Positions 39,797-53,978 of a stretch of DNA of 64,000 nt are shown here, piece by piece. The stretch's first letter is position 1, and every line of letters begins with the position of its first letter. Under the pieces are notes generated by a model. The model was not told where the DNA came from, made no database searches, and worked only from the letters and a program-made list of their open reading frames with translations. Source of the DNA: Candidatus Aldehydirespiratoraceae bacterium (GTDB lineage Bacteria; Actinomycetota; Acidimicrobiia; Acidimicrobiales; Aldehydirespiratoraceae); NCBI GenBank assembly GCA_965205465.1, contig OZ242187.1, forward strand, positions 2,902,244-2,966,243, written 5' to 3'. The position numbers were made by a program, and so were the translations under genes.

Positions 39797-40894
39797 TTGA
39801 ACATGGGTGTCGGACGCACCGAGATGGTTAACGGCGCGCTACCTTCGCCGTTTCCTGAAGGCTGGTATTTCGTCGCACGTCGTGAGTCCCTAGAGAAGAC
39901 CAAGCTCATCCAAAAGACCTGGATGGGCGAGGACATCGTCATCTGGTGTGACGAGAGTGGAAACGTCTGTGTCGCCGAGGCCTTTTGCGCGCACCTGGGT
40001 TCCAATCTGGGCCCCGCCGCAGGGGGATGTGTACGCGACGGCCGACTCGTGTGTCCCTTCCACGGTTTTGAGTACGACGCCGATGGCCATTGCGTTGCCA
40101 CTCCCTATGCCCCGGCACCGCCCGACATGCGCTTGCGAGTGTTTGAGACAACGGAGATGGTCGGTCTGATCTTCGCTTGGTGGGGGATCGGGGGAAGGGC
40201 GCCGCAATGGAGCCTCCCCGTGGAACCACCGGATCAAGCTGTTTGGAGCAATACCCGCATCTGGACCCACCGCTTTCCGGGTCATCCCCAGGAAACAACG
40301 GAGAATGCAGTGGATCTGGCCCACCTTCGTTACGTCCATGGCTACGACAGCGTCGGCCGCGTCGAAACGATAGCGGTGGACGGCCCCCGATTCGAGAGCA
40401 ATTTCGACTTCGCCACGACCCGCAGAGTTGCCGGAGTACCGTTGGTCAGTCTCAACTTCACCGCCCACACCGAGATCTTTGGACTCGGCTATTCGTTCGT
40501 GGGTGTACGCGAGCACTCGATTGGATTGGATTTACGCCTCTGGGTGCTGGCGACGCCAGTGGACGGCACGCTCATTGATTTGTCGATCGTCTCACAGGTA
40601 CGAGAGATCCGGAATCCGAGCCGCTGGATTCCAGGTCTGGGATTTCTCCCGCGGAAGCTGCGAGCGCCCCTGATGAACCGAATCGTGCTGTATTTTCAAC
40701 GGCACGACGTAATGCAGGATGTAGTCATATGGAGCCGCAAACAGTCCCGAATGCAGCCGCTCCTGTCACGTTCTGACGGTGAGATCATGGCGTACCGCGC
40801 ATACTGCGCGCAGTTCTATCCCAACGGTCTGCTTGTGGCGAGCGATGGAGAGAAAATCGACGACCAACCGGTAACCAAAGACGAACTGGAATAG
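39797..40894 (+). CDS. Rieske [2Fe-2S] non-haem-iron oxygenase
   Basis: Rieske motifs CAHLGSNL...CPFHGFEY. Mononuclear iron motif DLAHLRYVH (D-x2-H-x4-H). Confidence 0.8.
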   Translation: MNMGVGRTEMVNGALPSPFPEGWYFVARRESLEKTKLIQKTWMGEDIVIWCDESGNVCVAEAFCAHLGSNLGPAAGGCVRDGRLVCPFHGFEYDADGHCVATPYAPAPPDMRLRVFETTEMVGLIFAWWGIGGRAPQWSLPVEPPDQAVWSNTRIWTHRFPGHPQETTENAVDLAHLRYVHGYDSVGRVETIAVDGPRFESNFDFATTRRVAGVPLVSLNFTAHTEIFGLGYSFVGVREHSIGLDLRLWVLATPVDGTLIDLSIVSQVREIRNPSRWIPGLGFLPRKLRAPLMNRIVLYFQRHDVMQDVVIWSRKQSRMQPLLSRSDGEIMAYRAYCAQFYPNGLLVASDGEKIDDQPVTKDELE

Positions 40895-40900
40895 CGGGCA

Positions 40901-42289
40901 ATGACAACCACGCAGACGCGGGCAACACCGCGGCGAATTGCAATAATCGGTGGGGGCGTTTCGGGGCTAGGTGCGGCGTGGGCGCTGAACCATCATCCGG
41001 ATCGTTTTGATTTTCGGCTGTTCGAGGCGACCGAACGAATCGGTGGCAATGCAATCACCGCGGATATGCCGCAAGAGGATGGCACTTCGATTCCGTTCGA
41101 TATTTCGGTCACCGCCTGCATCCCGTCGGTGTATCAACACATTTTGTTGCTGTTGGACCGGTTCGACATCGACCTGATCGAAACCAGATTCAGCTACAGC
41201 GTCAAGTATGGGGGGCGGATCTACGCCCACGATTTCGATTCTGAAATACGCGAGCAACTGCAGGCCGAGATCGCACGATTCCAACGGCTCTTACGGCGTC
41301 TACACAAGTTCGGCTGGTTGAGCCGCTCGCCTTCCAAGTTTCTGAACGCCCTCAATCCGCTCAACTACATCAGCATGGGGACGATTCTGAACTGGGGAGG
41401 GTTCTCCGGTGATTTCAGGTACAAGATCCTCAAACCCATGTTCGTCAATTTCTTGATGGCAACGAACGTGTTCGACATGCCTGCGGCGCTGTTCGCGCGA
41501 TATCTCGAGTTCTTCGACATCGAATCTGCGACTCCGATGCAGACGTGGGACCAGGGAACAAGGCGCATCTACGAACACCTATCGGCTGACTATCGAGACA
41601 AGATCTACCTGAACCGGCCTGTTGAGAAGGTGTATCGCTCGGAGTCCTCGGTCGTGGTTGAGGACACTGCGGGCGTATGTGAGACCTTTGATGAGGTGAT
41701 CTTCGCTTGCAATGCGAATCAGACGCTGATGATCCTCGACAAACCCACCCGCTTTGAGCGCTATCTGCTCTCGTCGGTCCGTTACGAAAGCGAACTCCAC
41801 AACCACACCATCGTCCACTCCGACGCCTCAGTCCTTCCAGACAATGAGGTGAAACCCCTGACAACGCGGAGTAACCACATCGAACAATATGGGACGAGAC
41901 CAGACAATTACGAGATCACCTACATCATGCACAACCAGCAACCGTGGGCCAATCGGTCTGACAAGCCTTGTCTGGTGACCTACAACCCGATCACCCCCAT
42001 CGATGACGCCAAGATCGTCAAGAGGTGGTGGTTCCAACACATCGTGCACGATGTGCGTCACGTTGCGCTGACCGTCAACTCTTTCCGCTTTGTCCAAGGC
42101 AAGAGGCGAACCTGGCACTGCGGCGCCCACACGTTGATCAACAGCCAGGAGACCTGCCTCGTTACCGGACTGGCCGCGGCAAGACAGATCGGCGCGGACT
42201 ATCCCTTCGACGATGCCGAGACGACACGGCTGTTCAACTACTACGGCAGCATCCTGCACGGTGGGCGGTTCCGGAAGGTGAAGCGCTGA
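40901..42289 (+). CDS. FAD-dependent (amine-oxidase-like) oxidoreductase
   Basis: The motif IAIIGGGVSGLGAAWAL...FEATERIGGN is a dinucleotide-binding fold. Confidence 0.8.
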   Translation: MTTTQTRATPRRIAIIGGGVSGLGAAWALNHHPDRFDFRLFEATERIGGNAITADMPQEDGTSIPFDISVTACIPSVYQHILLLLDRFDIDLIETRFSYSVKYGGRIYAHDFDSEIREQLQAEIARFQRLLRRLHKFGWLSRSPSKFLNALNPLNYISMGTILNWGGFSGDFRYKILKPMFVNFLMATNVFDMPAALFARYLEFFDIESATPMQTWDQGTRRIYEHLSADYRDKIYLNRPVEKVYRSESSVVVEDTAGVCETFDEVIFACNANQTLMILDKPTRFERYLLSSVRYESELHNHTIVHSDASVLPDNEVKPLTTRSNHIEQYGTRPDNYEITYIMHNQQPWANRSDKPCLVTYNPITPIDDAKIVKRWWFQHIVHDVRHVALTVNSFRFVQGKRRTWHCGAHTLINSQETCLVTGLAAARQIGADYPFDDAETTRLFNYYGSILHGGRFRKVKR

Positions 42290-42359
42290 ACACCGCGGCT
42301 CCCCCTCAGCCGGTGGGCGATTCCCCGGCCCCGCGACCGGGAAGGTACAGTGACACGCC

Positions 42360-43090
42360 ATGACACGCGTGCTCGACAGGTTCAGTTGGCTGGTGACCTC
42401 CCGGCCGTGGATCACGATCCTTGTTCTGCTGGTGGTCACCGTTGGTCTCGGAGCGGGGGCGTCCCTCCGGGCCGAGCCGACTGAGGGAGCTTCGCTGGAG
42501 TTCCTTCCCTCGGACAGTCCCTACCTCGATGCGGTCGACGAGCTTGACGAGTTCTTCGGGGAGGCCGGCGACGTCAGTGTCGTGACTCTGGTGTTCCGCG
42601 GTGAGGCGTTCACACCCGGGGGCCTGTCGCAGATGGACGCCCTGGTGGACGAGATCATCGCGACTCCGGCCGTGGCGGCGCTGTTGATACCTCCAGATCC
42701 GATCATTGCGCCGTCTCTGTTGTTCGAGCACTTCGGGGGGGTCGGCGACTTCGGATCGGTCACCCAGCCAGAGATCGACGCGATCAGCGCCGTACCGGAG
42801 CTCGCGGGAGCGTTCGCGGCGATGTCGGGCGACGATGCCGACGGCACCTCGGTGACCGTCTCCACCATCCGCCTGCGCGACACCGGCGACGAGCGCATCG
42901 CCGAAGCAGAAAGGGCCGTCAACGACCTGGCGCTCAGTTCTGAGGGTCCGCTGCGCGTCAGCAGCGTGTCGCCGATCGTGGTCGAGGACGAGTACAAGGA
43001 GGCCACCGAGTCGGGCATGGGACCGTTGATCGGGCTGGCCCTGCTGTTGATCGCGGCGTTGATCCTGCTCTTCCTGCGCACATGGTCGGA
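42360..43090 (+). pseudogene. MMPL/RND transporter N-terminal fragment
   Basis: The first roughly 240 aa align by eye with the N-terminus of the intact MMPL at 44545. For example, VTLVFRGEAFTPGGLSQMDALVDEI matches VTVLFRGPSLSPDGLAQMDALGERV. Homology stops at ..LLFLRTWSD, and the ORF then runs out of frame. Confidence 0.6.
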
Positions 43091-44437
43091 TCGGTTGATC
43101 ACGAGGTTTCTCTCATGGACCGAGGAGCTATTGACTTCCCTGCGATGTTGCTTGGTATCAGCCGACTCCTGCAAACGGACGAATGGGTCCTCGGCCATTT
43201 TCGCAACCTCTATCGAGAAATACTCGTCGACGAGGGCCAGGACCTGACAGAAGTCCAAGCGAAGCTTCTGCGACAGCTCGCGGGCGACAGCGTCGGTCTC
43301 TTTGTCGTGGCGGACGACAAGCAGTCAATACGGGGATTCGCTGGCGGTGCTTTCGAGAATGCCAAGAAGCTCGTTCCTCGGGCGGCGAACGTTCCGCTCA
43401 CTCTTCGCCACAACTTTCGCTGTGCAAAGAAAATCTTGTGCGCGGCCGAATCCGTATTGCGGTCGCTGCCCGAAGATCAGTGCGAGGTGTACTCCCCAGA
43501 GAACATGCCGCCAGGGAAGGTCAGCACCATCGCGATGCGATCTCCTGAGACTGAGGCCGAATACGTCGCCTCGTGGGCATGCCGACTCATTGAACGTGGG
43601 CTAGACGGCGAAACGACTTCTGAGGGCGAGGACACTTCAGTCACTCCCGAGGACATCGCCATACTTGGAAGAACGAGATGGACTCTTGCCCCGCTGGTAG
43701 ACTCGTTGCAGGCTCGAGGCCTTGAACTGACCGTTCAAACAGACGCGGGAGTGTTCCTGAAGGAAGCGGAAGCCCGTCTGTTCGTCGATTGTCTTGCCTT
43801 CGCTCTGAACAACAATGATGCGCCTGCTGCACGTCGTGCGCTCGAGGAACTTCGGGAACTGATGCCTCAGCAGCGCTGCGACGATCCTCTGCAGGCGTTG
43901 AAGAACGCCGACGACGAGTCCTTGAGGGCCTTGGGGGATCTAGTCGCGTGCTCTGTGAATGGGCGAAGCGATTTTGCGATGGCGATGGATGCGCTGTCCG
44001 ACCACGGACAGGCGCACGGCTGGCAGGACGGAGCCCAGACCCTCAGCGATGAATGGAAGGACTACCGATCAAGGATGTCGGTGCAGGACCGATCCCCCAA
44101 AGGCTTCCTGGTGCATCTTGCGAGGACGCAGCGCACCCGCCCCACCGACCCGGGCGTACGGCTGTTGACCTTTGATCGTGCCAAGGGACTGGAATTCAAG
44201 GCCGTGGCACTGACCGGCGTCCGCGACGGACTGCTGCCGCACTACCGGGCTGATTCGGGGCAGGAGCGGGACGAAGACCGTCGCAGGCTCTACGTAGCCA
44301 TGACCCGGGCGTCTCGGGAATTGCTGATGTCATGGCCAGAGACCACCTACGACCGCTACGGCCGATCCCATGCGCAGACCCCCTCCCCCTTCCTGGTCGA
44401 AGCGGGACTCGCGACCACCGCATCCTCATCTCACTGA
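43082..44437 (+). pseudogene. UvrD/Rep-family helicase lacking its N-terminal (Walker A) region
   Basis: Homology starts inside domain 1A/1B (..AIDFPAMLL..FRNLYREILVDEGQDLTEVQ..). It continues to motif VI (LYVAMTRASRELLMSW). No GxGKT segment is present upstream. Confidence 0.6.
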
Positions 44438-44544
44438 AACGAGTCGGGATCATGAAGACGATCCTCGGTCTCGGTGTCTGGTACCCTGATTCGGCGTAAG
44501 GGCCAAATGACCGAGCCTCGACGGCAAGGACCGATTGATATCAC

Positions 44545-46998
44545 ATGAACCGCCTGATAGAGAGGATTGCCCGATCGGTCACGGCGCGCCCGTTCGCCAC
44601 CATCGGTCTGTTGGTTGTGGTGACGGTCGTATTGGCGTCCGGCGCGGCTCTGCGTGCTCCGCTGGACGAAACTGACGGCTTCATTCCACCGGACAGCGCC
44701 ATCAAACAGGTGCTGGACGAAATTGAAGAGTCCTTTGCGCAAGCGGGGAATGTCCGTCTGGTGACAGTGCTGTTCCGCGGGCCTTCGCTGAGTCCGGACG
44801 GTCTCGCACAGATGGATGCTTTGGGTGAACGCGTTGTCGCGGACCCGCAGGTTCGGGCGGCGCTCGCGGACGACGACCCGATTGTCTCTCCTACTAGTCT
44901 CATCCGCGCCGCGCTGCCACAGCAGCAGACCATCAGCATGGGTGGACTCAGCCAGGACGTGATCGACGCGGCCGCGTTCGCCCCGCCGATCTATGCGGCG
45001 CTGACGGAGATGACCGGCACGGATACCGACGGAACGGATGTGGCCATTGCCGCCATACGCCTGAATGCGGCCGACGACCAGCAGGTGCAGGAGGCCGAGC
45101 GCCTGATCAGTGAGTTCGCCGTTGAGTCGGTTGGGCCGCTGCAAGCGTCCACCGTGTCGCCGACGGTGATCGAGGACGAGTACCAGAGGGCATCGAGAGA
45201 AGGGGTGGCACCGCTGATGGGATTGGCGCTGGCGCTCATCGCGGTGATTCTCATTCTGTGCACCAGATCCCTCGCCGACGTGCTGCTCACGTTGGCAGGT
45301 TTGGTGATGTCGGTGTTGTGGGTCGTCGGCGCTGAAGGCTGGCTGGGTCCGAATGGACTGGGGTTTCTCGGCCGTCCGAGCGGGATCTCTGTGATGATCC
45401 CGATCATTCTGATCGGCCTCACAGTGGACTATGCGATCCAGACCGTTTCGCATTACCGTGAACAGCGAATTGCAGGCGATTCGCTGACGACCGCCATTCG
45501 AACGGGACTGCGTGACGTCAGCGTGCCTCTGCTGCTCGCGGTCGTCACGACAATGGTGAGCTTTCTCGTGGGGTTGCTCTCACCCATTCCCGCCATCAGG
45601 GATTTCGGCGTCGTTGCTGCGTTGGCCATCGCCATGAGCTTGATCGTGACGCTGTCCCTCCTGCCCGCAGCGCGGTTGATCATCGAGCGGCGACGAGAAG
45701 CACGGGGCAAGTTGACGGTGCCTCGCAGCATCTCGACGACCGTGCCGGGCGTCCGCTCCTTGGCGGGCAGGTTGGGTACCAGCGTGACACGTCGGCCGGT
45801 GACGTACATCGCAGTGACGGCGGTCGTCACGATCGGGTTGGGGTTCGCCGCCACAGATCTCAAGGCGGAGTTCAGCATCCGCGACGTTCTGCCCTCGGGA
45901 GGTTCCCTCATCAGGGATCTGAATACGCTGGATGCCGCCATCGGCGGCGCCACTGAGATGACCAACCTCTTAGTCAAGGCCGAGGCCACCGAAGCCCGAA
46001 CGCTGCTCGACTTGCGTGACCTGAGGTCGGGATTCGAGGATGGCGAACGCCGGCCGCTTGCCGCTGCAGGGCCCATAGAAGCCTCATACGACCTGATACT
46101 GCTCGATTGGATCAATGACAGCGGCGAACCTGGCGACAAGTACGACGCGGAGCTCGCGACGCTCTATCGCCAAGCCAATACGGGCCTCGGAACGGACCGC
46201 GCACTCATGCAGGAACTTCTCGGCAGGCTCTTGGTACTTGAACCCGCCACCGCGCGCCTGCTCGTCAACGATCCGGTTGGAATTGACACGATGCTGCTTC
46301 GGTTCCCGGCTACGGCGCTCGACGCCGAGTCGACCAAGCGCATTCAGGAGCAGGTCGAGGCGTTGTGGTTCGGCGACGACGAGTCCATCACGGCCGTGTC
46401 GCAGGGCATCGTCTCGGTCGCAGTCACTGACGAGATCTCGAGCCGGCAGACCGAGGCGATCGCGGCGACTATCATCGTCGCGCTCCTCATCCTGCTCGTT
46501 TTCTTCTGGGCGACGATGCGACAGCCGGTGCTGGCTTTCATTGCCGTTCTGCCGACAGTGATCGTGCTCGTTTGGGTCCTCGGCACGATGGCATTGCTTG
46601 GGATTCCTTACACATTGGTGACTTCCATCATCACGGCACTCACGGTCGGTATCGCCATCGACTATACGATCCATCTGGTACATCGCTATCGTGTGGAGTT
46701 CAGTCGATCGCGTCTGCCTGATCTTACAGCTGTCCGAACTTTGGAGATGACTGGTCCCGCATTATTCACATCCGCATTGACGACGATGCTCGGAGTCGGG
46801 GTGCTCGTGCTCTCACCCACATCCGCATTGAGAGATTTCGGGTTGACTGTGGCAATAGCGATCGGCTATGCGCTGGTGGTCTCCTGCCTCGTTGTGCCAT
46901 TGGCGATGACCATGTGGGGCACCTTTCGCAACATGCAGTTGCAAGCTGACCTCAAGCGAGTGTGGGATGACATCGACGTTCTTGTTGAATCTCACTAA
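44545..46998 (+). CDS. MMPL-family (RND superfamily) transporter
   Basis: 817 aa with two 6-helix bundles separated by soluble loops. Typical MMPL layout. Confidence 0.85.
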   Translation: MNRLIERIARSVTARPFATIGLLVVVTVVLASGAALRAPLDETDGFIPPDSAIKQVLDEIEESFAQAGNVRLVTVLFRGPSLSPDGLAQMDALGERVVADPQVRAALADDDPIVSPTSLIRAALPQQQTISMGGLSQDVIDAAAFAPPIYAALTEMTGTDTDGTDVAIAAIRLNAADDQQVQEAERLISEFAVESVGPLQASTVSPTVIEDEYQRASREGVAPLMGLALALIAVILILCTRSLADVLLTLAGLVMSVLWVVGAEGWLGPNGLGFLGRPSGISVMIPIILIGLTVDYAIQTVSHYREQRIAGDSLTTAIRTGLRDVSVPLLLAVVTTMVSFLVGLLSPIPAIRDFGVVAALAIAMSLIVTLSLLPAARLIIERRREARGKLTVPRSISTTVPGVRSLAGRLGTSVTRRPVTYIAVTAVVTIGLGFAATDLKAEFSIRDVLPSGGSLIRDLNTLDAAIGGATEMTNLLVKAEATEARTLLDLRDLRSGFEDGERRPLAAAGPIEASYDLILLDWINDSGEPGDKYDAELATLYRQANTGLGTDRALMQELLGRLLVLEPATARLLVNDPVGIDTMLLRFPATALDAESTKRIQEQVEALWFGDDESITAVSQGIVSVAVTDEISSRQTEAIAATIIVALLILLVFFWATMRQPVLAFIAVLPTVIVLVWVLGTMALLGIPYTLVTSIITALTVGIAIDYTIHLVHRYRVEFSRSRLPDLTAVRTLEMTGPALFTSALTTMLGVGVLVLSPTSALRDFGLTVAIAIGYALVVSCLVVPLAMTMWGTFRNMQLQADLKRVWDDIDVLVESH

Positions 46999-47055
46999 CG
47001 TCATCAGCACACATAGGCCTTGCCATCCATCACGTTCGGCAGAGGGACGAGGTAC

Positions 47056-49080
47056 TCAGATAGGGTTCAGAATTTCCGCTACTCGAAACTTCAGTTTCTT
47101 GCCAGGCGAGGATGTAGGTATTGGCTTGATGCGCAGTTCTCGCTCGGGATTTAGGGTTTCAAGCCTGACGTGGTACGTTATCAGCAATGTATTGAGGATC
47201 ATCTGCAAGTCCGCATAGTGCCGTCCGAGACATGCATGTGTTCCTAATCCGAAACGCACATACGCCCCCCGCGCTTGATGCTCTGAACGGTCAGGCAGGT
47301 AACGATCAATATCGAAGTCAAGCGGACTCTTATACAAGTCTTCATCGTAGTGAGGTGCCCCTTGACAGGTCATCAGGAGTGTTTTGGCTGGAATCTCAAA
47401 ACCTGCGATGGTGCAATCGTTCATCACTGTCCTGAGCTGAATCGGAAAGGTCGGATACAAGCGTGCCGCTTCCATACAGACGCGCTGCGTAACCTCAAAA
47501 CGATCGGCAGTAAAATTCTCGGCGCATAGTTCAGCACCATCTCCAAATACTGTCTCAGCTTCTTTGTACACTTTCTCACGCAGGTCGGGGCGTTGATTCA
47601 GGCAGTACATCACAAAACCGAGTCCAGAACCAAGGTAAATGGCCGCTGCCATTGAGAAGACGAACCAGAAAGTAATGTCAGTTTCCGGCAAGAACTGCGG
47701 ATCTTTCTGGTGCAATGCCAGAACAGCGTCGGCGATGTCGCCGGGTTGCCCGCGGCGCTGAGCCGGTGTGTGTGACTCTAGAACGGACTGTCGTAGTTCT
47801 TCCACGCGCTTGCGATAACGCTTCATTCTCGGTGTCCGTAACATGAAGTGCGGTAACATCCCTTGCACTTCTGTAGCCAATGCACGATGCTCAAAGTCAA
47901 TCAGTTCTCGGGCGTAGTGGCTGCAATCAACATTGATGAGCAGTCGTGAGGATTGACTGGCAATCATGTCCTCGAGTGTCTGCGTGGCGCGAAACACGCT
48001 CCCCTCGGTCCACTCCTTCAAGGATTGTCGGCACAGGTGGACAGCCTCGGGCAGTCGCTCTCGGAACGCAGGACCGGAGTACGCGGCCTGCATTGCGCGC
48101 CGCATCTTGAAGTGATCAGCGCCGTCCATGCCAGGAATGCTGTTGCCAGCACCGACCGCTCGTTCGAGACCCTGAACGTAGTCTTTTGAGCGAAGGTAGT
48201 AGCGCCCATAGGTGTTCACCCATTGATTTACTTCGGTCCCTATGGCGACGACAACGGGTGACTTGTGGATTTTGAACGGCATAGTCAGAATGGGGCCATG
48301 TTGTCGAGAAATTTCGAGCATTCCCTTCGGGATATTGCCTGACCGCAGGTCTCGCTGCCGCAGGAGATCAATATAGCGCAGCTTGTCCATTTGCTGGCGC
48401 GGTCGTGTGCGACGAAGTTTCGGTCGTCCGACGGAATCCACGATCGCCTGGGCTACAGTGCGACCGATGAGATCAAGATTGGCTAAGAACTCAATTCGCT
48501 CGTGCCATTCTTCGTAATCTTCCGCCGACAGCAATGTCTCGAAGCCCTTGATCGAGTGAAGCAATGACACAAGAATGGCATCGCGCGGGGATGGAATAGT
48601 GTCGTTCATAATGACACCAATGATTCGGGACTTGCACTCCTGAACCATCGCACGAGATTTGCCTGGATAGTGGCCCGAACGGGCCACATCACGCGAGAGC
48701 ATCCAGAATCCGCCGTTGAGATATTCAAGTATGCCCCGCTCGACCAGACGATTGAGCATGTTCGACACGACCAGCTCTGAATGTACTGCATTTCGCTCAA
48801 TCCAATATTGTGCATCTTTATCTTCTGAAGACTCAGCGATCTCTGATAGAATTGAGTCAATGGTTTCATCACCTACGGGATCGTCGTTGATAATATACAA
48901 CGTTGCCGGATCTGTATCTATTCGTCCGTCCAGTGCTAGATCTGCAATGACAGCACCAATAGTAACGCAAGAAAGCGGCCAGCCCGGCGCCTTTTCCAAA
49001 TAGCCCGTCTGCTCGTTGAGCATCAACATTATCAGTTCTTCGGTGAGAAAGAGCTTCTCAAACTGCTGGGGCGAATTCAT
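47056..49080 (-). CDS. GPP34 (GOLPH3/VPS74-like) domain fused to cytochrome P450
   Basis: The N-terminus LFLTEELIMLMLNEQTGYLEKAPGWPLSCVTIGAVIADLALDGRIDTD is a GPP34 signature. The C-terminal half has EAAR (ExxR) and the haem loop FGLGTHACLGRHYA. The gene is visibly A+T-richer than its flanks. Confidence 0.8.
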   Translation of the reverse strand: MNSPQQFEKLFLTEELIMLMLNEQTGYLEKAPGWPLSCVTIGAVIADLALDGRIDTDPATLYIINDDPVGDETIDSILSEIAESSEDKDAQYWIERNAVHSELVVSNMLNRLVERGILEYLNGGFWMLSRDVARSGHYPGKSRAMVQECKSRIIGVIMNDTIPSPRDAILVSLLHSIKGFETLLSAEDYEEWHERIEFLANLDLIGRTVAQAIVDSVGRPKLRRTRPRQQMDKLRYIDLLRQRDLRSGNIPKGMLEISRQHGPILTMPFKIHKSPVVVAIGTEVNQWVNTYGRYYLRSKDYVQGLERAVGAGNSIPGMDGADHFKMRRAMQAAYSGPAFRERLPEAVHLCRQSLKEWTEGSVFRATQTLEDMIASQSSRLLINVDCSHYARELIDFEHRALATEVQGMLPHFMLRTPRMKRYRKRVEELRQSVLESHTPAQRRGQPGDIADAVLALHQKDPQFLPETDITFWFVFSMAAAIYLGSGLGFVMYCLNQRPDLREKVYKEAETVFGDGAELCAENFTADRFEVTQRVCMEAARLYPTFPIQLRTVMNDCTIAGFEIPAKTLLMTCQGAPHYDEDLYKSPLDFDIDRYLPDRSEHQARGAYVRFGLGTHACLGRHYADLQMILNTLLITYHVRLETLNPERELRIKPIPTSSPGKKLKFRVAEILNPI

Positions 49081-49451
49081 GTGACATCCTCATGGTGGAT
49101 CGGGTTGACAACCACTGGGTCGACGATTGTCTCGGTGGGTGGGCGTGCGTGGTGGCGGGGGTGGGAGCGACCGGGATTTGATGGCTGGTTCGCGCAAGCC
49201 GTGTCTGTGCGCGGTGCTGAGCGGTTGGGTGACGCGGTGTTCGCGATGGTCGCGAACCGGTTGGTGGCGCCGTGCCCGAAGCGGCGACTGCCCGAGTGGA
49301 TCCGAGCTGATGTGTCGATACGGCCGATGAGTGACAGTTTGGCGCGCGCGGCACCGACCTTGGCACGGTTCAGGCTCCATTCGGGAACTTGATGGAAGTA
49401 GCCGCTCTCCTCGTTCAGCAGCGTCAGTACACCTTCGCCGGAGCGCGTCAT
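49077..49451 (-). CDS. Short GPP34-like N-terminal paralogue (possibly degenerate)
   Basis: Contains MTRSGEGVLTLLNEESGYFHQVPEWSLNRAKVGAARAKLSLIGRIDTS, then a low-complexity tail. ATGA overlap with the P450 fusion start. Confidence 0.4.
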   Translation of the reverse strand: MTRSGEGVLTLLNEESGYFHQVPEWSLNRAKVGAARAKLSLIGRIDTSARIHSGSRRFGHGATNRFATIANTASPNRSAPRTDTACANQPSNPGRSHPRHHARPPTETIVDPVVVNPIHHEDVT

Positions 49452-49543
49452 CAATTCTGCCTTCCGTGTCCTCTGCCGCGAACTATATCCGTTTCGGCCA
49501 CTTTGCAGCAACGCACGACCTACTTGAGCAGGTCGGGAGATCG

Positions 49544-50092
49544 CTAGTGGCGGCGTCTGCGGCGTCGCTTGAGATTGGGTCGTTTGCGCCAACGAGCCCG
49601 TTGCTTGGCGACACTGCGCTTGGCAAGTTCATCGGTCGGATTCACGTCCAGCCCGTACATCTCTTCGGTGCTCTGTCGTGACCGACGTTCGAGCAGCAAG
49701 ATCGACAGTAGAGGCAGGCCGAAGATGCAGAGGGCGGCGGCGCTGAGAATCGTGATCCAGGTCTCGCTGCGTTCAGCTATCAGGTACCACCCCGAAAACA
49801 CCAGCAACCCCAGCATCGCTAGCCAAAAGGCCACGCCTATCAACAGCATCACCGCCATCGCTACGTACTCGTATGTGCGGTCGTCTTCCCTTGGGCTGCG
49901 GATGTAGCGGGTCAGGAACATAGCAAGAAGAACCATGGCCCCTGCGGCCACTATCCGAACGGTGCCGATTGTCGATCCTGCCTCTTTGTCGGCGAGCACA
50001 GGGACCGCCGCTGCGATCGTTCCAGCCAAGAGGAGACCGATCGCCATCATCGCGAACACAGTCGGGTCCACGCCGGTGTCTCTACGAGCCAT
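49544..50092 (-). CDS. Hypothetical membrane protein with poly-Arg C-terminus
   Basis: Start taken at MARRDTGV. Four or five hydrophobic helices. The tail reads ..KRPNLKRRRRRRH. Confidence 0.5.
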   Translation of the reverse strand: MARRDTGVDPTVFAMMAIGLLLAGTIAAAVPVLADKEAGSTIGTVRIVAAGAMVLLAMFLTRYIRSPREDDRTYEYVAMAVMLLIGVAFWLAMLGLLVFSGWYLIAERSETWITILSAAALCIFGLPLLSILLLERRSRQSTEEMYGLDVNPTDELAKRSVAKQRARWRKRPNLKRRRRRRH

Positions 50093-50396
50093 GCCCCCAG
50101 CGTAGAACGATGCTCTTGTCACTTTCACCGTCTCTCTGACGAATCTCCCACGAGTGTGTGGGGTGTGCCCACGGACTGTGTGGTGAACTTCGACAACATT
50201 CCCATGATTCCTCGAGATGTGTTCCGTCACCGGTTAACCGCGCTCAGCCCCAAAAGGCTAGCCCGAGCCTGCCAAACCCTACGACGCCACCGGCTGCTGA
50301 ACCCGAGCGCGTTAGGTTTGGGGGTTGGGTGTGTTGGATCCTGCTACGCCAAGCTTCATGCTCAACCCAGGTCCATCAGCGCGATGCGTGTGGGGG

Positions 50397-53300
50397 CTAG
50401 GTGGGGGGCTGCCAGCGGTGGGCGATTATCTTGTCTCGTTCGGCGGGGTCGGTGATGGAGACAGTGGAGGTGGGGGTGCGGTGCCAGAAGATTTCCTGGT
50501 CACCTTTGCGTTCCTGGATGGGATGGCCGGATGGTTCGATACTGATGCGGGCCAGTTGGTTGCCGTCTACGGTGTGAAACTCCCAGTCGATGAGGTCAAG
50601 AACGGCGTCACCAAGACGGGAGCGGATGAGGTTCTCCAAGTGTTGGCCCCATAGGTCCTGGTCACCCCGCTCGCCGCGTTTGGTGAACGTGGCGTAGTCG
50701 TCTTCCAGACCGTGGACGGAGCCGTCGTCGGCCACACCGATGAGCAGGGTGCCACCGAATTTCGAGTTGGTGAAACCGGCGATGGTCTTGATGGCGGCGT
50801 CCTCGGTCACGCCGCCTTTGCGCTGTGCTTTGATGTCCCAGCGCAGCGTGGATTTGTATTCCAGGTGGAGCGTCTCGCGGTCGGGTCCGATCAGGTCGCC
50901 GATGGGGCAGGTTCGTTGGCGAGCAACGGTCGCGCGCTTCTGCACATCGGGGGCGAACACGGCGATGAGATCGGCTTGCAATTCGCTGTTGTCCAGATAG
51001 CTGAACACCAGTTTGTCGTTGCGGTCGAGGCGTGACAGCAGTGCGTCTTGGAACCGCGCGGGGAACACATGGTCGCGGAACGTGGCTTCGTCGTTGTTGG
51101 TTGCCTGATTCTGGATCTCTATATCGGAGATCAGATCTGCTGCGGCGGCTTGGAACACGAGTCGGTCATCTTCGGTCCAGTCCGTGCCGAAGCGTTCGTT
51201 GATGCGGGCGATGATCTTCGAAAGGTGTTCGGCTTCGGGATCGGCGAGTGGACCTGTGCCGGAGTAGATGGTGATTACCTCGGCTTCTCCGCCCGGAAGT
51301 TCGATCGAGCCCTCGAAGGTCAGGTCGTGTCGCAGGTGTGTCAGTTCCACTTCGGAACCCAGGTTGATGCGGTCGGTGCCTGTGCGGTCACGGATCAGTG
51401 CGGCCAAGGCTCGACAGAAGCGGTAGTCGCGCTCAAGCTCCGCGTTTCGGAACTGCACCACGAGCGACAGGAAGCTGTAGACACGCACAAACCGGCCCAA
51501 AGCGTCGCGAAATGCGTCTTGGTCTTCTTCGGTCAGCGCATTGAAACGGTCAACCGCGGGTTGCATGGCTGCGTCGATCTGGGCGTGGGTGCCTTCGCTC
51601 ACCAACAGGGTGGAGGCCCGTTCCATCTCGCCTTGGTCGAGCACGTCGAAGCGGTCGAGTTCGTGACGGGTGTCGAACAGCAGGTTGGGATCGGTGGGCG
51701 GGGCGACGGTCTTGCCGTAGTAAACGGCGAATGCTTCTTGAATCTCGTCGGCTTCGTTCACGAAATCAACGACGAACGTGCGAGTCTTTGCGGGGTGGAT
51801 CCGGTTGAGCCTTGAGAGGGTCTGAACTGCGGCCAATCCGGTGAGGGTCTTGTCGACGTACATGGCGGCGAGCTTGGGCTGGTCGAAACCGGTCTGGAAC
51901 TTCTCGGCGACCACCATGATCTGCCATTCGTCGGTGTCGAAGCGTTGAGCGGTCTGCGATTCTCCGAAGCCGTTGGCTTTGGTCTCGGTGAGTCCGTCAA
52001 CCTCGCCTGAGAACGCTACGAGCACTCCGAGGTCGTAGCCGAGGTTGTTGGCATGGTTCCGCAGCGCTTCCCACATCCGTACGGCGTGGGGCCGTGACGA
52101 GCACACCACCATCGCTTTGGCTCTGCCTCCGACCTGGCGGGCGATCTTGGTGCGGAAGTGCTCGACGATGATCTCGGCTTTCTGCGCCAGATTGTCGGGG
52201 TGAAGGGTCACGAATCTGGCGAGCGCGCTGCGGGCTTTGCTTGTTTCGTATGCCGGATCGTCGAGGATCGATTTTTCGAGGTGGAAGTATTGGTTGTAGG
52301 TGAGATAACCGGCCAGCACATCCATGATGAAGGCTTCTTCGATGGCTTGGCGCATCGGGTATTGGTGGAACGGCTTGTGTTTGCCGTCTTTGACCTCGCC
52401 GAACATCTCAAGGGTGCGGCCTTTGGGTGTGGCGGTGAACGCGAAGAAGGACAGGTTGGGCTGAGGACCCCGCGCTGTCACGGCTTCTGCGAGCAGTGTT
52501 TCGGCGTCGGTCGGTTCGTCTTCGCTGTTCGCCTCAACCTCCGGCTCGGCAGAACCCAGGGCACGACGCAGCTCAGCGGCGGCCTGACCGGTCTGCGAGG
52601 AGTGGGCTTCGTCGACGATGACCGCATAGTTGTGTTCAGGTACCTGCTCGATCTTGTCGAGGATGTAGGGGAACTTCTGCAGGGTCGTGACGATGATCCG
52701 GGCCTGCTCACCGATCAGGGCTTCGGCCAACTGCGCCGATGACTCGTCGATGCGCTGCACGACCCCGGTGGCGTGCTCGAACTTGTTGATGGTGTCTTGA
52801 AGTTGCCGGTCGAGCACGATCCGGTCGGTGATGACCACCACCTTGTCGAACACATTGGTATCGGTCTGGTTGTGCAGCGATGAAAGCCGGTGGGCCAACC
52901 AGGCGATCGAATTGGACTTGCCCGACCCTGCTGAGTGTTGAACCAGGTAGTTGCGGCCCGCTCCGTTTTCTTTGGCGTCCGCTTCGAGTTGGCACACGGC
53001 ATCCCATTGATGGAACCGCGGGAAGATCACTTCTGGTCTGGCCCGTGAGCCTTTTGATGGTTTCACCACATGTATGAACCGACCGAGGATGTCCATCCAG
53101 GCGTCGCGGCTCCAAACCTGTTGCCACAGATACGAGGTTCGGTGGCCGTCGGGGTTTGGCGGGTTGCCCGCGCCGAGTTGGTGCCCCCGGTTGAATGGCA
53201 GGAACCGGGTACGGGTGCCGGCGAGGTGGGTGGTCATCGCCACAGAGGATGGATCGACTGCGAAGTGCACCATGCCGGTCCGGTTCAGGGTCCGGTTGCG

Positions 53301-53855
53301 GGGCGACCGGTCGTGTCGGTATTGGGCGATGGCGTTCTCAACGGTCTGGCCTGTGTAGGGGTTCTTGAGTTCGGCGGTGGCCACCGGTATGCCGTTGACG
53401 AACAGGGCAAGGTCGACTGTCTGGTTGCTGGAGGGATCGAACGGTAGCTGCCGGGTCACCGTCAACACGTTTGCGTCGTAGCGTTCGGCCAGCTCTGGCG
53501 TCAGCCCGTGCGCCGGTTTGAAGTAGGCGAGCTTGATTGTGACGTTGCGGTCCACGACACCGTTCCGCAGCACGTCCACGGTGCCGCGCTTGTTGAGTTC
53601 GAAGGCGAGTCGCCGCACGAACCCGGACTGCGCTCTGTTGGGATCGCCTCCGTATGCGGAGTCCACCAGCCGCGCCCATTGCTCGCCCTGGGTCGCGCCG
53701 ATGAACACGAACAGATCGGCCGTGTCCACGCCCGCCTCAGCGTCGAAGTCCCTCGGATGGTCCCCAACGTTTCCGATCTTCACCTGCCGGTAGCCGCCGT
53801 GTTCAACCAGCCAGGAGGCGATGTCTTCTTCAAACGCCGCTTCAGTTACAGACAT
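50397..53855 (-). CDS. hsdR: Type I restriction enzyme R subunit with C-terminal AlbA_2/Schlafen-like domain
   Basis: SF2 motifs QHSAGSGKSNS, TDRIVLDRQL, VIVDEAHSSQ and FAFTATP. The N-terminus begins EAAFEEDIASWL. GGAGG lies 8 nt before ATG 53855. The extra C-terminal 155 aa begin LEYKSTLRWD...AGFTNSKFGGTLLIGVADDGSVHGLEDDY. Confidence 0.9.
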   Translation of the reverse strand: MSVTEAAFEEDIASWLVEHGGYRQVKIGNVGDHPRDFDAEAGVDTADLFVFIGATQGEQWARLVDSAYGGDPNRAQSGFVRRLAFELNKRGTVDVLRNGVVDRNVTIKLAYFKPAHGLTPELAERYDANVLTVTRQLPFDPSSNQTVDLALFVNGIPVATAELKNPYTGQTVENAIAQYRHDRSPRNRTLNRTGMVHFAVDPSSVAMTTHLAGTRTRFLPFNRGHQLGAGNPPNPDGHRTSYLWQQVWSRDAWMDILGRFIHVVKPSKGSRARPEVIFPRFHQWDAVCQLEADAKENGAGRNYLVQHSAGSGKSNSIAWLAHRLSSLHNQTDTNVFDKVVVITDRIVLDRQLQDTINKFEHATGVVQRIDESSAQLAEALIGEQARIIVTTLQKFPYILDKIEQVPEHNYAVIVDEAHSSQTGQAAAELRRALGSAEPEVEANSEDEPTDAETLLAEAVTARGPQPNLSFFAFTATPKGRTLEMFGEVKDGKHKPFHQYPMRQAIEEAFIMDVLAGYLTYNQYFHLEKSILDDPAYETSKARSALARFVTLHPDNLAQKAEIIVEHFRTKIARQVGGRAKAMVVCSSRPHAVRMWEALRNHANNLGYDLGVLVAFSGEVDGLTETKANGFGESQTAQRFDTDEWQIMVVAEKFQTGFDQPKLAAMYVDKTLTGLAAVQTLSRLNRIHPAKTRTFVVDFVNEADEIQEAFAVYYGKTVAPPTDPNLLFDTRHELDRFDVLDQGEMERASTLLVSEGTHAQIDAAMQPAVDRFNALTEEDQDAFRDALGRFVRVYSFLSLVVQFRNAELERDYRFCRALAALIRDRTGTDRINLGSEVELTHLRHDLTFEGSIELPGGEAEVITIYSGTGPLADPEAEHLSKIIARINERFGTDWTEDDRLVFQAAAADLISDIEIQNQATNNDEATFRDHVFPARFQDALLSRLDRNDKLVFSYLDNSELQADLIAVFAPDVQKRATVARQRTCPIGDLIGPDRETLHLEYKSTLRWDIKAQRKGGVTEDAAIKTIAGFTNSKFGGTLLIGVADDGSVHGLEDDYATFTKRGERGDQDLWGQHLENLIRSRLGDAVLDLIDWEFHTVDGNQLARISIEPSGHPIQERKGDQEIFWHRTPTSTVSITDPAERDKIIAHRWQPPT

Positions 53856-53978
53856 CACAGTCACCTCCCCCTCGGCCCGAACGCCCCACACACCCTAGAA
53901 GCAAGCGAACTGAACCGTGAAGCCGACCCCCGTTGGAACATCGAGCATCAGCGGCGTCCGTGACCATAGAGTCCTGGC

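Follow-up and report, generated by a model that had tools for sequence, protein, structure and literature searches.

Proteins in which a GPP34 domain is joined to a cytochrome P450 are known as the GPP34_L family, which comprises 656 members from metagenome-assembled genomes (MAGs) of sponge symbionts of many phyla, and from sponge symbionts only (Microbiome 2025;13:4; PMC11706023). GPP34_L is present in ~76-100% of the symbiont genomes in several phyla and is expressed in Aplysina aerophoba metatranscriptomes, and GPP34 proteins have been proposed to be secreted effectors which bind phosphatidylinositol 4-phosphate (PI4P) of the host and block phagosome maturation (PMC11706023). Such a GPP34-P450 fusion gene is located in a 64,000-nucleotide stretch of the genome of a Candidatus Aldehydirespiratoraceae bacterium (GenBank assembly GCA_965205465.1, contig OZ242187.1, positions 2,902,244 to 2,966,243), the whole of which is referred to as the window. 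The window fusion shares with GPP34_L the architecture, the length of ~673 amino acids (aa) and the clade, and groups with the other fusions in the tree, while it is at most 66% identical to the listed members and is a xenologue that displaces a native copy to which it is only 36-39% identical. As it was published in 2025 as GPP34_L (PMC11706023), the fusion architecture itself is not new; the window fusion is a new divergent GPP34_L copy, and the novelty specific to the locus is its displacement in situ. With a probability of roughly 60%, the foreign fusion replaced the native copy and acts as a membrane-sited oxidase in a module for the tailoring and transport of a sterol-like lipid.

The locus shows the displacement of the transporter-oxidase pair of the genus by foreign alleles, caught in the act. 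The features involved, in which MMPL designates a transporter of the resistance-nodulation-division (RND) type, are the following:

42360..43103, plus strand: native MMPL stub, first 248 codons (77-94% aa identity to MMPL residues 1-248 of seven congeners)
43104..49311, no strand assigned: foreign replacement segment of 6,208 bp with helicase fragment, MMPL, GPP34-P450 and a 231-bp leader (blastn against three congeners)
43082..44437, plus strand: UvrD-like helicase fragment, truncated at the 5' end, on the left margin of the foreign segment (Pfam UvrD-helicase and UvrD_C)
44545..46998, plus strand: complete MMPL/HAE3-type RND transporter, 817 aa, foreign allele, convergent with the fusion gene (Pfam and NCBIfam)
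47056..49080, minus strand: GPP34-cytochrome P450 fusion gene, 674 aa, foreign 'type A' allele (open reading frame (ORF), Pfam and tree)
49312..49592, minus strand: native GPP34-P450 stub, 5' end (62-72% aa identity to congener fusion N-termini)

Synteny was compared over 20 kb around the fusion genes of eight congeners. The loci are syntenic with the window in the order MurT/GatD, Rieske/KshA_C, flavin adenine dinucleotide (FAD) oxidoreductase and MMPL, followed in six of the eight by the convergent fusion, with a 228-aa membrane protein downstream in three and HsdR in four. In protein sequence, the flanking genes are mostly 80-97% identical to those of the window, compared with 51-54% for MMPL and 36-39% for the fusion. 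A full-length GPP34-P450 is encoded by 15 of 17 congeners, in each case with merely this 36-39% identity to the window fusion; no closer copy was found in the sampled congeners and no genus-type copy in the window's genome. Blastn against three congeners yields the same breakpoints, with homology of 86-94% ending at 43103 and resuming with 82-90% from 49311/49312; between them, congener G013 possesses 3,583 bp and the window 6,208 bp. The native MMPL stub gives a weak Pfam MMPL match. The native fusion stub, which is 38% identical to residues 5-57 of the resident fusion, shows N-terminal homology over about 49592-49308 on the minus strand, and its ORF continues to 49077, where it forms an ATGA overlap with the start of the foreign gene. 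Because the flanks are 80-97% identical, MMPL and fusion are divergent, native stubs are kept and the breakpoints are shared, it is strongly supported that 43104-49311 is foreign DNA which took, in situ, the place of the MMPL and GPP34-P450 pair native to the genus. The horizontal acquisition surmised in the initial sequence-only reading from base composition thus gains strong support from a swapped-in segment of defined extent, with the nearest relatives in other phyla or families.

During the exchange, the 6.2 kb of foreign DNA would have overwritten the 3' parts of the native MMPL and the native fusion genes, bringing in the helicase fragment, a complete divergent MMPL and a complete fusion of the Acidobacteriota/Rhodothermota clade. 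As the native stub runs into the foreign start with the ATGA overlap, a native promoter may now drive the foreign fusion gene. The helicase fragment, for which the Pfam UvrD-helicase profile is covered only at positions 181-265 of 271, has no counterpart at the eight congener loci. It was dismissed as a clue to the donor, as tblastn gave no match at E <= 1e-10 among the fetched loci; a UvrD gene is present near the fusion of the 66% identical relative, yet it does not match the window fragment. At the right junction, a plus-strand ORF (49081-49392) that looks like part of an insertion sequence by eye was discarded as a transposase remnant, having no Pfam match at E <= 1, and the 231-bp junction stretch 49081-49311 has no second copy in the window's genome. 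Integration at a tRNA gene was likewise rejected, as the 86-nt tRNA-Ala(CGC) called by ARAGORN within the helicase ORF (44069-44154, minus strand) is probably a false positive. In an Rfam search of 42000-50500 no match reached E <= 0.1, the edges of the foreign segment show no convincing repeats, either direct or inverted, and no promoter or terminator signals at the locus were convincing above the shuffled expectation. Beyond the right breakpoint, the HsdR protein (50397-53891, minus strand), which shares 87-94% identity with its counterparts at four of the eight congener loci, carries an extra C-terminal Schlafen/AlbA_2 domain at residues 1006-1141 (Pfam E 9e-12).

Within the fusion gene, the following elements can be distinguished:

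48439..49047, minus strand: GPP34 (GOLPH3/Vps74-like) domain, residues 12-214 (Pfam PF05719, E 5.5e-27)
47158..48342, minus strand: cytochrome P450 domain, residues 247-641 (Pfam PF00067, E 1.3e-35)
47629..47646, minus strand: I-helix core A479-A-I-Y482-L483-G484 (Tyr and Leu at the Asp-Thr columns of related fusions)
47230..47232, minus strand: Cys617 codon, encoding the thiolate ligand of the haem (loop FGLGTHACLG; loop invariants in 95/95 fusions)

The GPP34 match scores 95.6 bits against a cut-off of 29.1, so that the N-terminal GPP34 domain is confirmed, as is the P450 portion with its ExxR motif and haem loop. The ORF at 47056..49080 is one uninterrupted frame of 674 codons, preceded by a Shine-Dalgarno-like GAGGA 6 nt ahead of the ATG. 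Both domains are present in all 120 relatives listed, each of ~673 aa, and a fusion relative is encoded at 313 loci when one genome per species is scanned; the single frame and the more than 300 relatives of the same length rule out a frameshift artefact joining or splitting two separate genes. Among the database matches listed, the closest relative is at most 66% identical. The P450 domain alone as query mostly returned fusions of 650-690 aa down to ~25% identity, and both GPP34 and P450 were found in eight of nine long distant relatives tested. The distant relative P0267 (872 aa) has two GPP34 domains preceding the P450, and another one, P0332, is a 711-aa P450 with C-terminal cyclic-nucleotide-binding domains. 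Two GPP34-P450 genes occur within 10 kb of each other in the six loci L007, L009, L029, L053, L064 and L073.

Base composition sets the gene apart, as had been noticed from the letters: windowed and codon-position calculations give a G+C content of 0.522 versus 0.603 for the genome, with 0.603/0.401/0.561 at codon positions 1/2/3, and only 0.5% of the 2,025-bp windows of the genome are as G+C-poor. The neighbouring genes have a third-position G+C content (GC3) of 0.68-0.77, and the genome one of ~0.72. Low G+C as a trait of the family is ruled out by a mean GC3 of 0.737 for 85 fusions versus 0.701 for the other ORFs of the same loci. A low GC3 is confined among these 85 to three copies, that of the window, that of Candidatus Poriferisodalis (0.49 versus 0.68 in its surroundings) and P0003, which is 64% identical to the window fusion (0.66 versus 0.75-0.83). 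This common feature of the three copies suggests that the sub-lineage of the window copy moved repeatedly into G+C-richer hosts.

With respect to the origin of the incoming genes, a FastTree phylogeny of 95 fusions with local supports, in which long branches need care, resolves two deep clades. Type A comprises copies from Acidobacteriota, Rhodothermota, Pseudomonadota and Latescibacterota, and type B the native copies of the genus, a Chloroflexota copy and two copies located beside the 61% identical relatives of the window MMPL. The sister of the window fusion is the 66% identical copy from a Candidatus Poriferisodalis MAG (support 100); on a long branch, the two fall within the Acidobacteriota/Rhodothermota portion of type A, which has 56 rows (support 100). 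That actinobacterial MAG is distant from the window's genome, at ~66% nucleotide identity over the aligned flanking genes, and the nearest relatives in general come from MAGs bearing sponge-type names, for instance Candidatus Poriferisodalis and Candidatus Porisulfidus 'lac_sponge'. At three Pseudomonadota loci the second GPP34-P450 copy stems from the other deep clade. Transfer of MMPL and fusion as a co-evolved pair is not supported, as the clades do not match and the foreign MMPL has a GC3 of 0.74 compared with 0.56 for the fusion. Since its 61% identical relatives adjoin type B fusions, whereas the window fusion belongs to type A, the MMPL has a history different from that of the fusion, and the 6.2-kb segment is therefore a mosaic.

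The gene surroundings of the family are the main source of functional information. ORFs within 10 kb of the fusion were clustered from 79 species loci and the window, giving 80 loci, in which these components recur:

AcrB-type RND permease: 61 of 80 loci
membrane-fusion protein: 50 of 80 loci
Rieske/KshA_C oxygenase: 43 of 80 loci
outer-membrane factor: 36 of 80 loci
methyltransferase with CMAS and Sterol_MT_C domains: 30 of 80 loci
FAD amine-oxidase-fold protein: 22 of 80 loci

In 72 of 78 species loci, the fusion has at least one module gene (RND pump, KshA-like Rieske oxygenase, sterol methyltransferase (SMT) homologue or FAD oxidase) no more than 3 kb away. Monoderm-type lineages carry an MMPL/HAE3 transporter in place of the tripartite pump; for example, a Chloroflexota MAG combines MMPL, SMT homologue, fusion, Rieske oxygenase and FAD oxidase. 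All three sampled relatives of the window MMPL (61%, 61% and 56% identical) adjoin a GPP34-P450 and a Rieske/KshA_C gene. Two conserved proteins of ~490 aa, found near the fusion in 24/80 and 11/80 loci (L084:18406-19884 and L020:2232-3689), may be further components of the module, such as envelope proteins; their representatives have no Pfam or NCBIfam match. Two native module genes precede the replaced segment in the window:

39797..40894, plus strand: KshA-like Rieske oxygenase (Pfam Rieske and KshA_C)
40901..42289, plus strand: FAD amine-oxidase-fold oxidoreductase (Pfam Amino_oxidase and NAD_binding_8)

The nearest solved structures of the Rieske protein, which is 64-98% identical in congeners, are those of the 3-ketosteroid 9alpha-hydroxylase KshA (E 4e-24), and the nearest solved structure of the FAD oxidoreductase, 86-95% identical in congeners, is LkcE (E 1.7e-29). 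The window MMPL matches the Pfam MMPL, Patched and sterol-sensing models as well as the NCBIfam HAE3 and HpnN-like models; compared with the BstA and HpnN transporters for sterols and hopanoids, it matches the respective models weakly and far under the cut-offs. The module methyltransferases match Sterol_MT_C above the cut-off and display the SMT region I motif in a GWGxSxHFAP version. SMTs of sponge symbionts methylate sterols in vitro (PMC10070321), and sterol genes have spread laterally among sponge symbionts (PMC9531527). The inclination towards a sterol rests on this SMT activity together with the KshA-like Rieske oxygenase, the Sterol_MT_C domain and the occurrence of CYP51 and CYP46A1 among the near structures of the P450.

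The closest described gene sets of this kind, the SMT clusters (PMC10070321) and the ERG24-CYP51-LSS clusters (PMC9531527), have in common with the GPP34-P450 module the lateral spread across phyla, the sponge habitat (here putative) and the SMT homologue; unlike these bacterial sterol clusters, the module lacks cyclase, CYP51 and ERG24. No squalene or oxidosqualene cyclase is found in the window's genome, which is 93.9% complete, and a strong cyclase match in just two of ten other module-bearing genomes. As the window's genome and most of the module-bearing genomes checked are without a cyclase, the substrate, if a sterol, is mostly exogenous and probably derived from host or food. Elsewhere in the window's genome, an SMT homologue (G000:C1:1198399-1199463; Sterol_MT_C E 7e-21, motif YEYGWGKSFH) is ~41% identical to the module-linked methyltransferases and has two P450 genes within 15 kb. 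A cyclase match (E 4.7e-55) at G196:C1:42785-43759, in the genome of locus L058, lies within a frame of 1,670 aa, which suggests a fused cyclase in this module-bearing Pseudomonadales MAG.

Several observations speak against the assignment of the window fusion to a sterol-like-lipid module. A sterol-like substrate is a best guess drawn from the gene neighbours only, the RND, FAD-oxidase and P450 folds being generic for hydrophobic substrates. The Rieske protein was rejected as an orthologue of SdmA, with ~40 bits versus a cut-off of 600. Across the 80 loci the module has no recurrent ferredoxin or reductase, and in the Candidatus Poriferisodalis genome no module gene lies within 10 kb of the closest fusion relative. 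Type A fusions normally pair with AcrB-type pumps, and the window copy is located beside an MMPL; the two are not co-evolved and may not cooperate.

A generic unit for the oxidation and efflux of hydrophobic compounds is a serious rival. P450 and Rieske oxygenase would hydroxylate xenobiotic or other non-sterol compounds, such as sponge metabolites, terpenoids or hopanoid- and carotenoid-like lipids, for expulsion by the RND pump, with no involvement of sterols. Tripartite pumps of the AcrB type are classic multidrug exporters, the near structures of the P450 include the fatty-acid and terpenoid enzymes CYP184A1, CYP102, CYP120A1 and CYP170A1 with pentalenene oxygenase as NCBIfam match, the FAD protein is nearest to LkcE and a fatty-acid isomerase, and the SMT homologue is present in only 30 of the 80 loci. 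On the other hand, the methyltransferase that does recur has the C-terminal domain of sterol methyltransferases, the nearest solved Rieske enzyme is a steroid hydroxylase, monoderm-type genomes carry a HpnN/Patched-like MMPL, and a dedicated pathway agrees better with the conservation of the whole set, as one unit, across phyla. Detoxification is on balance an unlikely explanation of the module.

The GPP34 domain bears on a further alternative, namely the published proposal (PMC11706023) of a secreted effector whose GPP34 domain binds host PI4P on phagosomes and blocks their maturation, the P450 being accessory or directed at the host. The restriction of the family to sponge symbionts, its expression in hospite (PMC11706023) and the sponge-MAG style names of all nearest relatives are in line with this proposal. 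The domain is also a true homologue of the eukaryotic proteins, as the GPP34 profile of the fusion family matches human GOLPH3 (3kn1) with E 1.2e-13 over ~195 positions and yeast Vps74 (2zii) with E 6e-10 over ~150 positions. PI4P is bound in GOLPH3 by W81, R90, R171 and R174 (PMC3596250). According to the sequence alignment, the R90 column is A or V in 89 of 95 fusions and never basic, the R171 column D or E in 94/95, and the R174 column V or I in 91/95, while the W81 column holds V/A with an invariant W34 located three columns off; the window fusion has A31, I41, E102 and V105 at the W81, R90, R171 and R174 columns. Thus, compared with GOLPH3 and Vps74, the fold is homologous, but the PI4P-contact residues are not kept in the fusions, and the domain is bacterial and covalently joined to an enzyme. 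Bacteria have neither a Golgi apparatus nor PI4P.

As arginines 90, 171 and 174 of GOLPH3 have become A/V, D/E and V/I, the phosphoinositide analogy appears weakened for the fusion GPP34. Of the proposal made from the letters, a lipid- or membrane-directed oxygenase, the direction to lipid or membrane is plausible by gene context and the N-terminal placement of GPP34, whereas the analogy to phosphoinositide binding has lost ground. The replaced contact residues across the 95 fusions equally count against the effector, as do the missing signal peptide or hydrophobic N-terminus of the window fusion, in which GPP34 begins ~10 residues past the Met and the I-helix is the sole strongly hydrophobic stretch. 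A haem thiolate enzyme moreover needs haem loading and usually cytoplasmic redox partners, and in 72 of 78 species genes for transporters and lipid enzymes are tightly linked to the fusion gene, which also counts against this role. A secreted effector is accordingly quite improbable.

Returning to a membrane-sited oxidase, GPP34 is followed by a basic stretch and then, in most members, by a Pro-rich hinge K-P-I-P-K-L at 229-234; the window copy is without both hinge prolines (P230Q, P232D). Established knowledge of the N-terminal anchor of microsomal (class II) P450s, applied here by inference, provides a parallel, as the fusion likewise consists of an N-terminal non-catalytic module, a basic stretch, a hinge and the P450 fold. 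The module of the fusion differs in being a soluble helical domain of 200 residues and not a transmembrane helix. By this analogy, GPP34 may be inferred to act at the bacterial membrane or at a transporter, where it would serve for docking or present a lipid.

The P450 domain retains the hallmarks of the superfamily across the 95 fusions, with E537 and R540 of the ExxR motif (E537-A-A-R540) invariant, a conserved PERF-like Arg in D590-I-D-R593-Y, and G611, G613, T614, H615, C617 and G619 of the haem loop F610-GLGTHAC617LG invariant in 95/95. Invariant in 95/95 and in both clades are also A479, Y482, G484 and F489 of the I-helix, and the window copy retains all residues that are invariant across both clades. 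The peptide AAAIYLGSGLG (residues 478-488) falls centrally within the I-helix predicted at H466-496 in an AlphaFold model of the fusion with a mean predicted local distance difference test score of 78.5. The absence of the acid-alcohol pair, first spotted in this peptide, is real and holds across the clade of the window fusion: position 482 is Thr or Ser in none of the 95 fusions and position 483 is Ser in one. A-G-(L/I)-D-T occupies the same gap-free columns in most distant fusions and also in the nearest P450s that stand alone, one cluster is intermediate with A-G-H-Y-T, and only types A and B with their close kin read A-(S/A)-x-Y-(L/V/M)-G. As the AGLDT-type relatives align without gaps, with Asp at Y482 and Thr at L483, the proton-relay Asp appears to have been replaced by an invariant Tyr and the Thr by a hydrophobic residue (Leu/Val/Met) in this sub-family. 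An alternative register, counted 16 residues back from P498 with the Thr at Y482, was set aside in favour of the gap-free alignment.

The nearest solved P450s are CYP120A1, CYP51, CYP184A1 and CYP170A1 with 17-22% identity, with cholesterol 24-hydroxylase CYP46A1 also among the nearest (sequence E 5e-19 to 1e-15; target-normalised template-modelling scores 0.75-0.80), and the best NCBIfam match is pentalenene oxygenase. With the sterol 14alpha-demethylase CYP51, compared through the structures of Methylococcus capsulatus (6mcw/7snm) and human (6uez), the window P450 shares 17-20% identity, which is under the ~40% family level of the P450 nomenclature, and its I-helix reads A-A-I-Y-L-G where CYP51 has A-G-H-H-T-S, I-Y-L aligning with H-H-T. 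Like the CYP51-ferredoxin of M. capsulatus, the fusion is a bacterial P450 of a eukaryote-like class with an extra fused domain, although its partner is N-terminal and not a redox protein. P450s without the I-helix acid-alcohol pair are CYP74 allene oxide synthase, CYP8A1, CYP5A1, the CYP152 peroxygenases and P450eryF, with which the fusion has the lack of the Asp/Glu-Thr proton-relay pair in common; unlike CYP74, its Cys loop is canonical and has no insertion. To our knowledge, a Tyr at the I-helix acid position can be assigned to none of these enzymes. Because the pair is missing, peroxide-type, shunt or substrate-assisted oxygen chemistry is conceivable by analogy.

Cumulatively, the fusion protein may be envisaged as a cytoplasmic enzyme sited at the membrane, in which GPP34 would stand in for the N-terminal anchor of microsomal P450s, docking it at either the inner membrane or the RND/MMPL transporter or supplying the lipid. 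The P450 would oxidise a sterol-like polycyclic lipid that would also serve the KshA-like Rieske oxygenase and the FAD oxidase as substrate and, in many genomes, the SMT homologue as well, and the RND pump would carry substrate or product across the envelope. With an invariant Tyr and Leu/Val/Met instead of the Asp-Thr relay, the chemistry of the P450 would be non-canonical. More tentatively, and with a likelihood below even, the fusion might be the docked oxidase of a laterally mobile Rieske/FAD/SMT/pump cassette with which sponge symbionts of many phyla would remodel and return host sterols by a non-canonical P450 chemistry, possibly without a dedicated redox partner, its alleles being exchanged between phyla and displacing each other in situ.

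That the window copy is a decaying or non-functional xenologue, carried along when the insertion destroyed the native genes, would be compatible with its long branch (0.42 + 0.22), its composition, which has not ameliorated, and the scarred locus with two gene stubs and a helicase fragment. Furthermore, of 155 positions with a conservation of 97% or more among the other type A proteins, 18 differ in the window copy, against a median of 0 in those proteins. However, the 66% identical Poriferisodalis copy also departs at 12 of these 18 positions, eight times with the identical substitution, and the substitutions common to both copies include A475F in the I-helix, V544T/I545F just past the K-helix and P609R at the Cys loop. 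The region past the K-helix lines the substrate pocket in P450s generally. These shared departures would characterise a conserved, re-specialised sub-lineage and not decay. With the 674-codon frame intact, GAGGA ahead of its start and the catalytic invariants kept (Cys loop, ExxR, DRY and A479/Y482/G484/F489), the window fusion is probably functional, and decay is highly unlikely.

A stand-alone GPP34 gene (220 aa, Pfam E 5e-44; G000:C1:2175635-2180432, locus L001) is found outside the window in the same genome. It is located inside a haem-synthesis operon of the order hemC-hemD-GPP34-hemB-hemL, with a P450 gene ~3 kb downstream; hemC, hemD, hemB and hemL surround it in five of six congeners and hemC and hemD only in the sixth. 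This placement of the short GPP34 was rejected as a general rule, being confined to the genus: none of the 16 GPP34 genes inspected in 11 further genomes of the phylum has it, and neither does the relative from another genus. The idea that bacterial GPP34 is a haem or tetrapyrrole accessory, which loads or regulates haem enzymes, instead of a lipid or membrane module could invoke this operon in the genome and its congeners and the haem-enzyme partner of 656 of 663 GPP34 fusions (PMC11706023), but given the restricted operon placement, the Rieske domain and ABC ATPase as the rare other fusion partners, which are not haem proteins, and no haem-binding motif identified, it has very little probability.

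The preferred reading, an oxidase of a sterol-like-lipid module that displaced the native copy in place, also extends what is on record. A text search of PMC11706023 turned up no account of the RND/Rieske/SMT neighbourhood, of the I-helix change or the P450 active site, or of the PI4P residues, and neither Brown et al. 2023 (PMC10070321), Brown and Welander 2025 nor Kelly et al. 2022 (PMC9531527) describe GPP34-P450, Rieske or efflux genes beside sterol genes. The linkage to Rieske, FAD, SMT and RND genes, the lost PI4P residues and the I-helix with Asp-to-Tyr and Thr-to-Leu replacement thus go beyond the papers checked.

GPP34-P450 is among the most consistently sponge-symbiont-specific proteins reported, and the only published idea about its role is that of a PI4P effector. 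The gene context and the lost PI4P residues point instead to lipid, probably sterol, chemistry at the bacterial membrane; if this is true, the phagosome-evasion role published for GPP34_L would need revision. The I-helix with Tyr for Asp and Leu for Thr marks a P450 sub-family with potentially non-canonical chemistry. The locus in addition represents a natural experiment, in which a module was exchanged between phyla and an enzyme of a diderm clade could be retained in a monoderm-type locus. The sterol reading bears on the question of who makes and modifies sponge sterols and on the debate about sponge biomarkers, as part of the unusual 'sponge' sterols used as fossil biomarkers would, if it is true, be made by bacteria.

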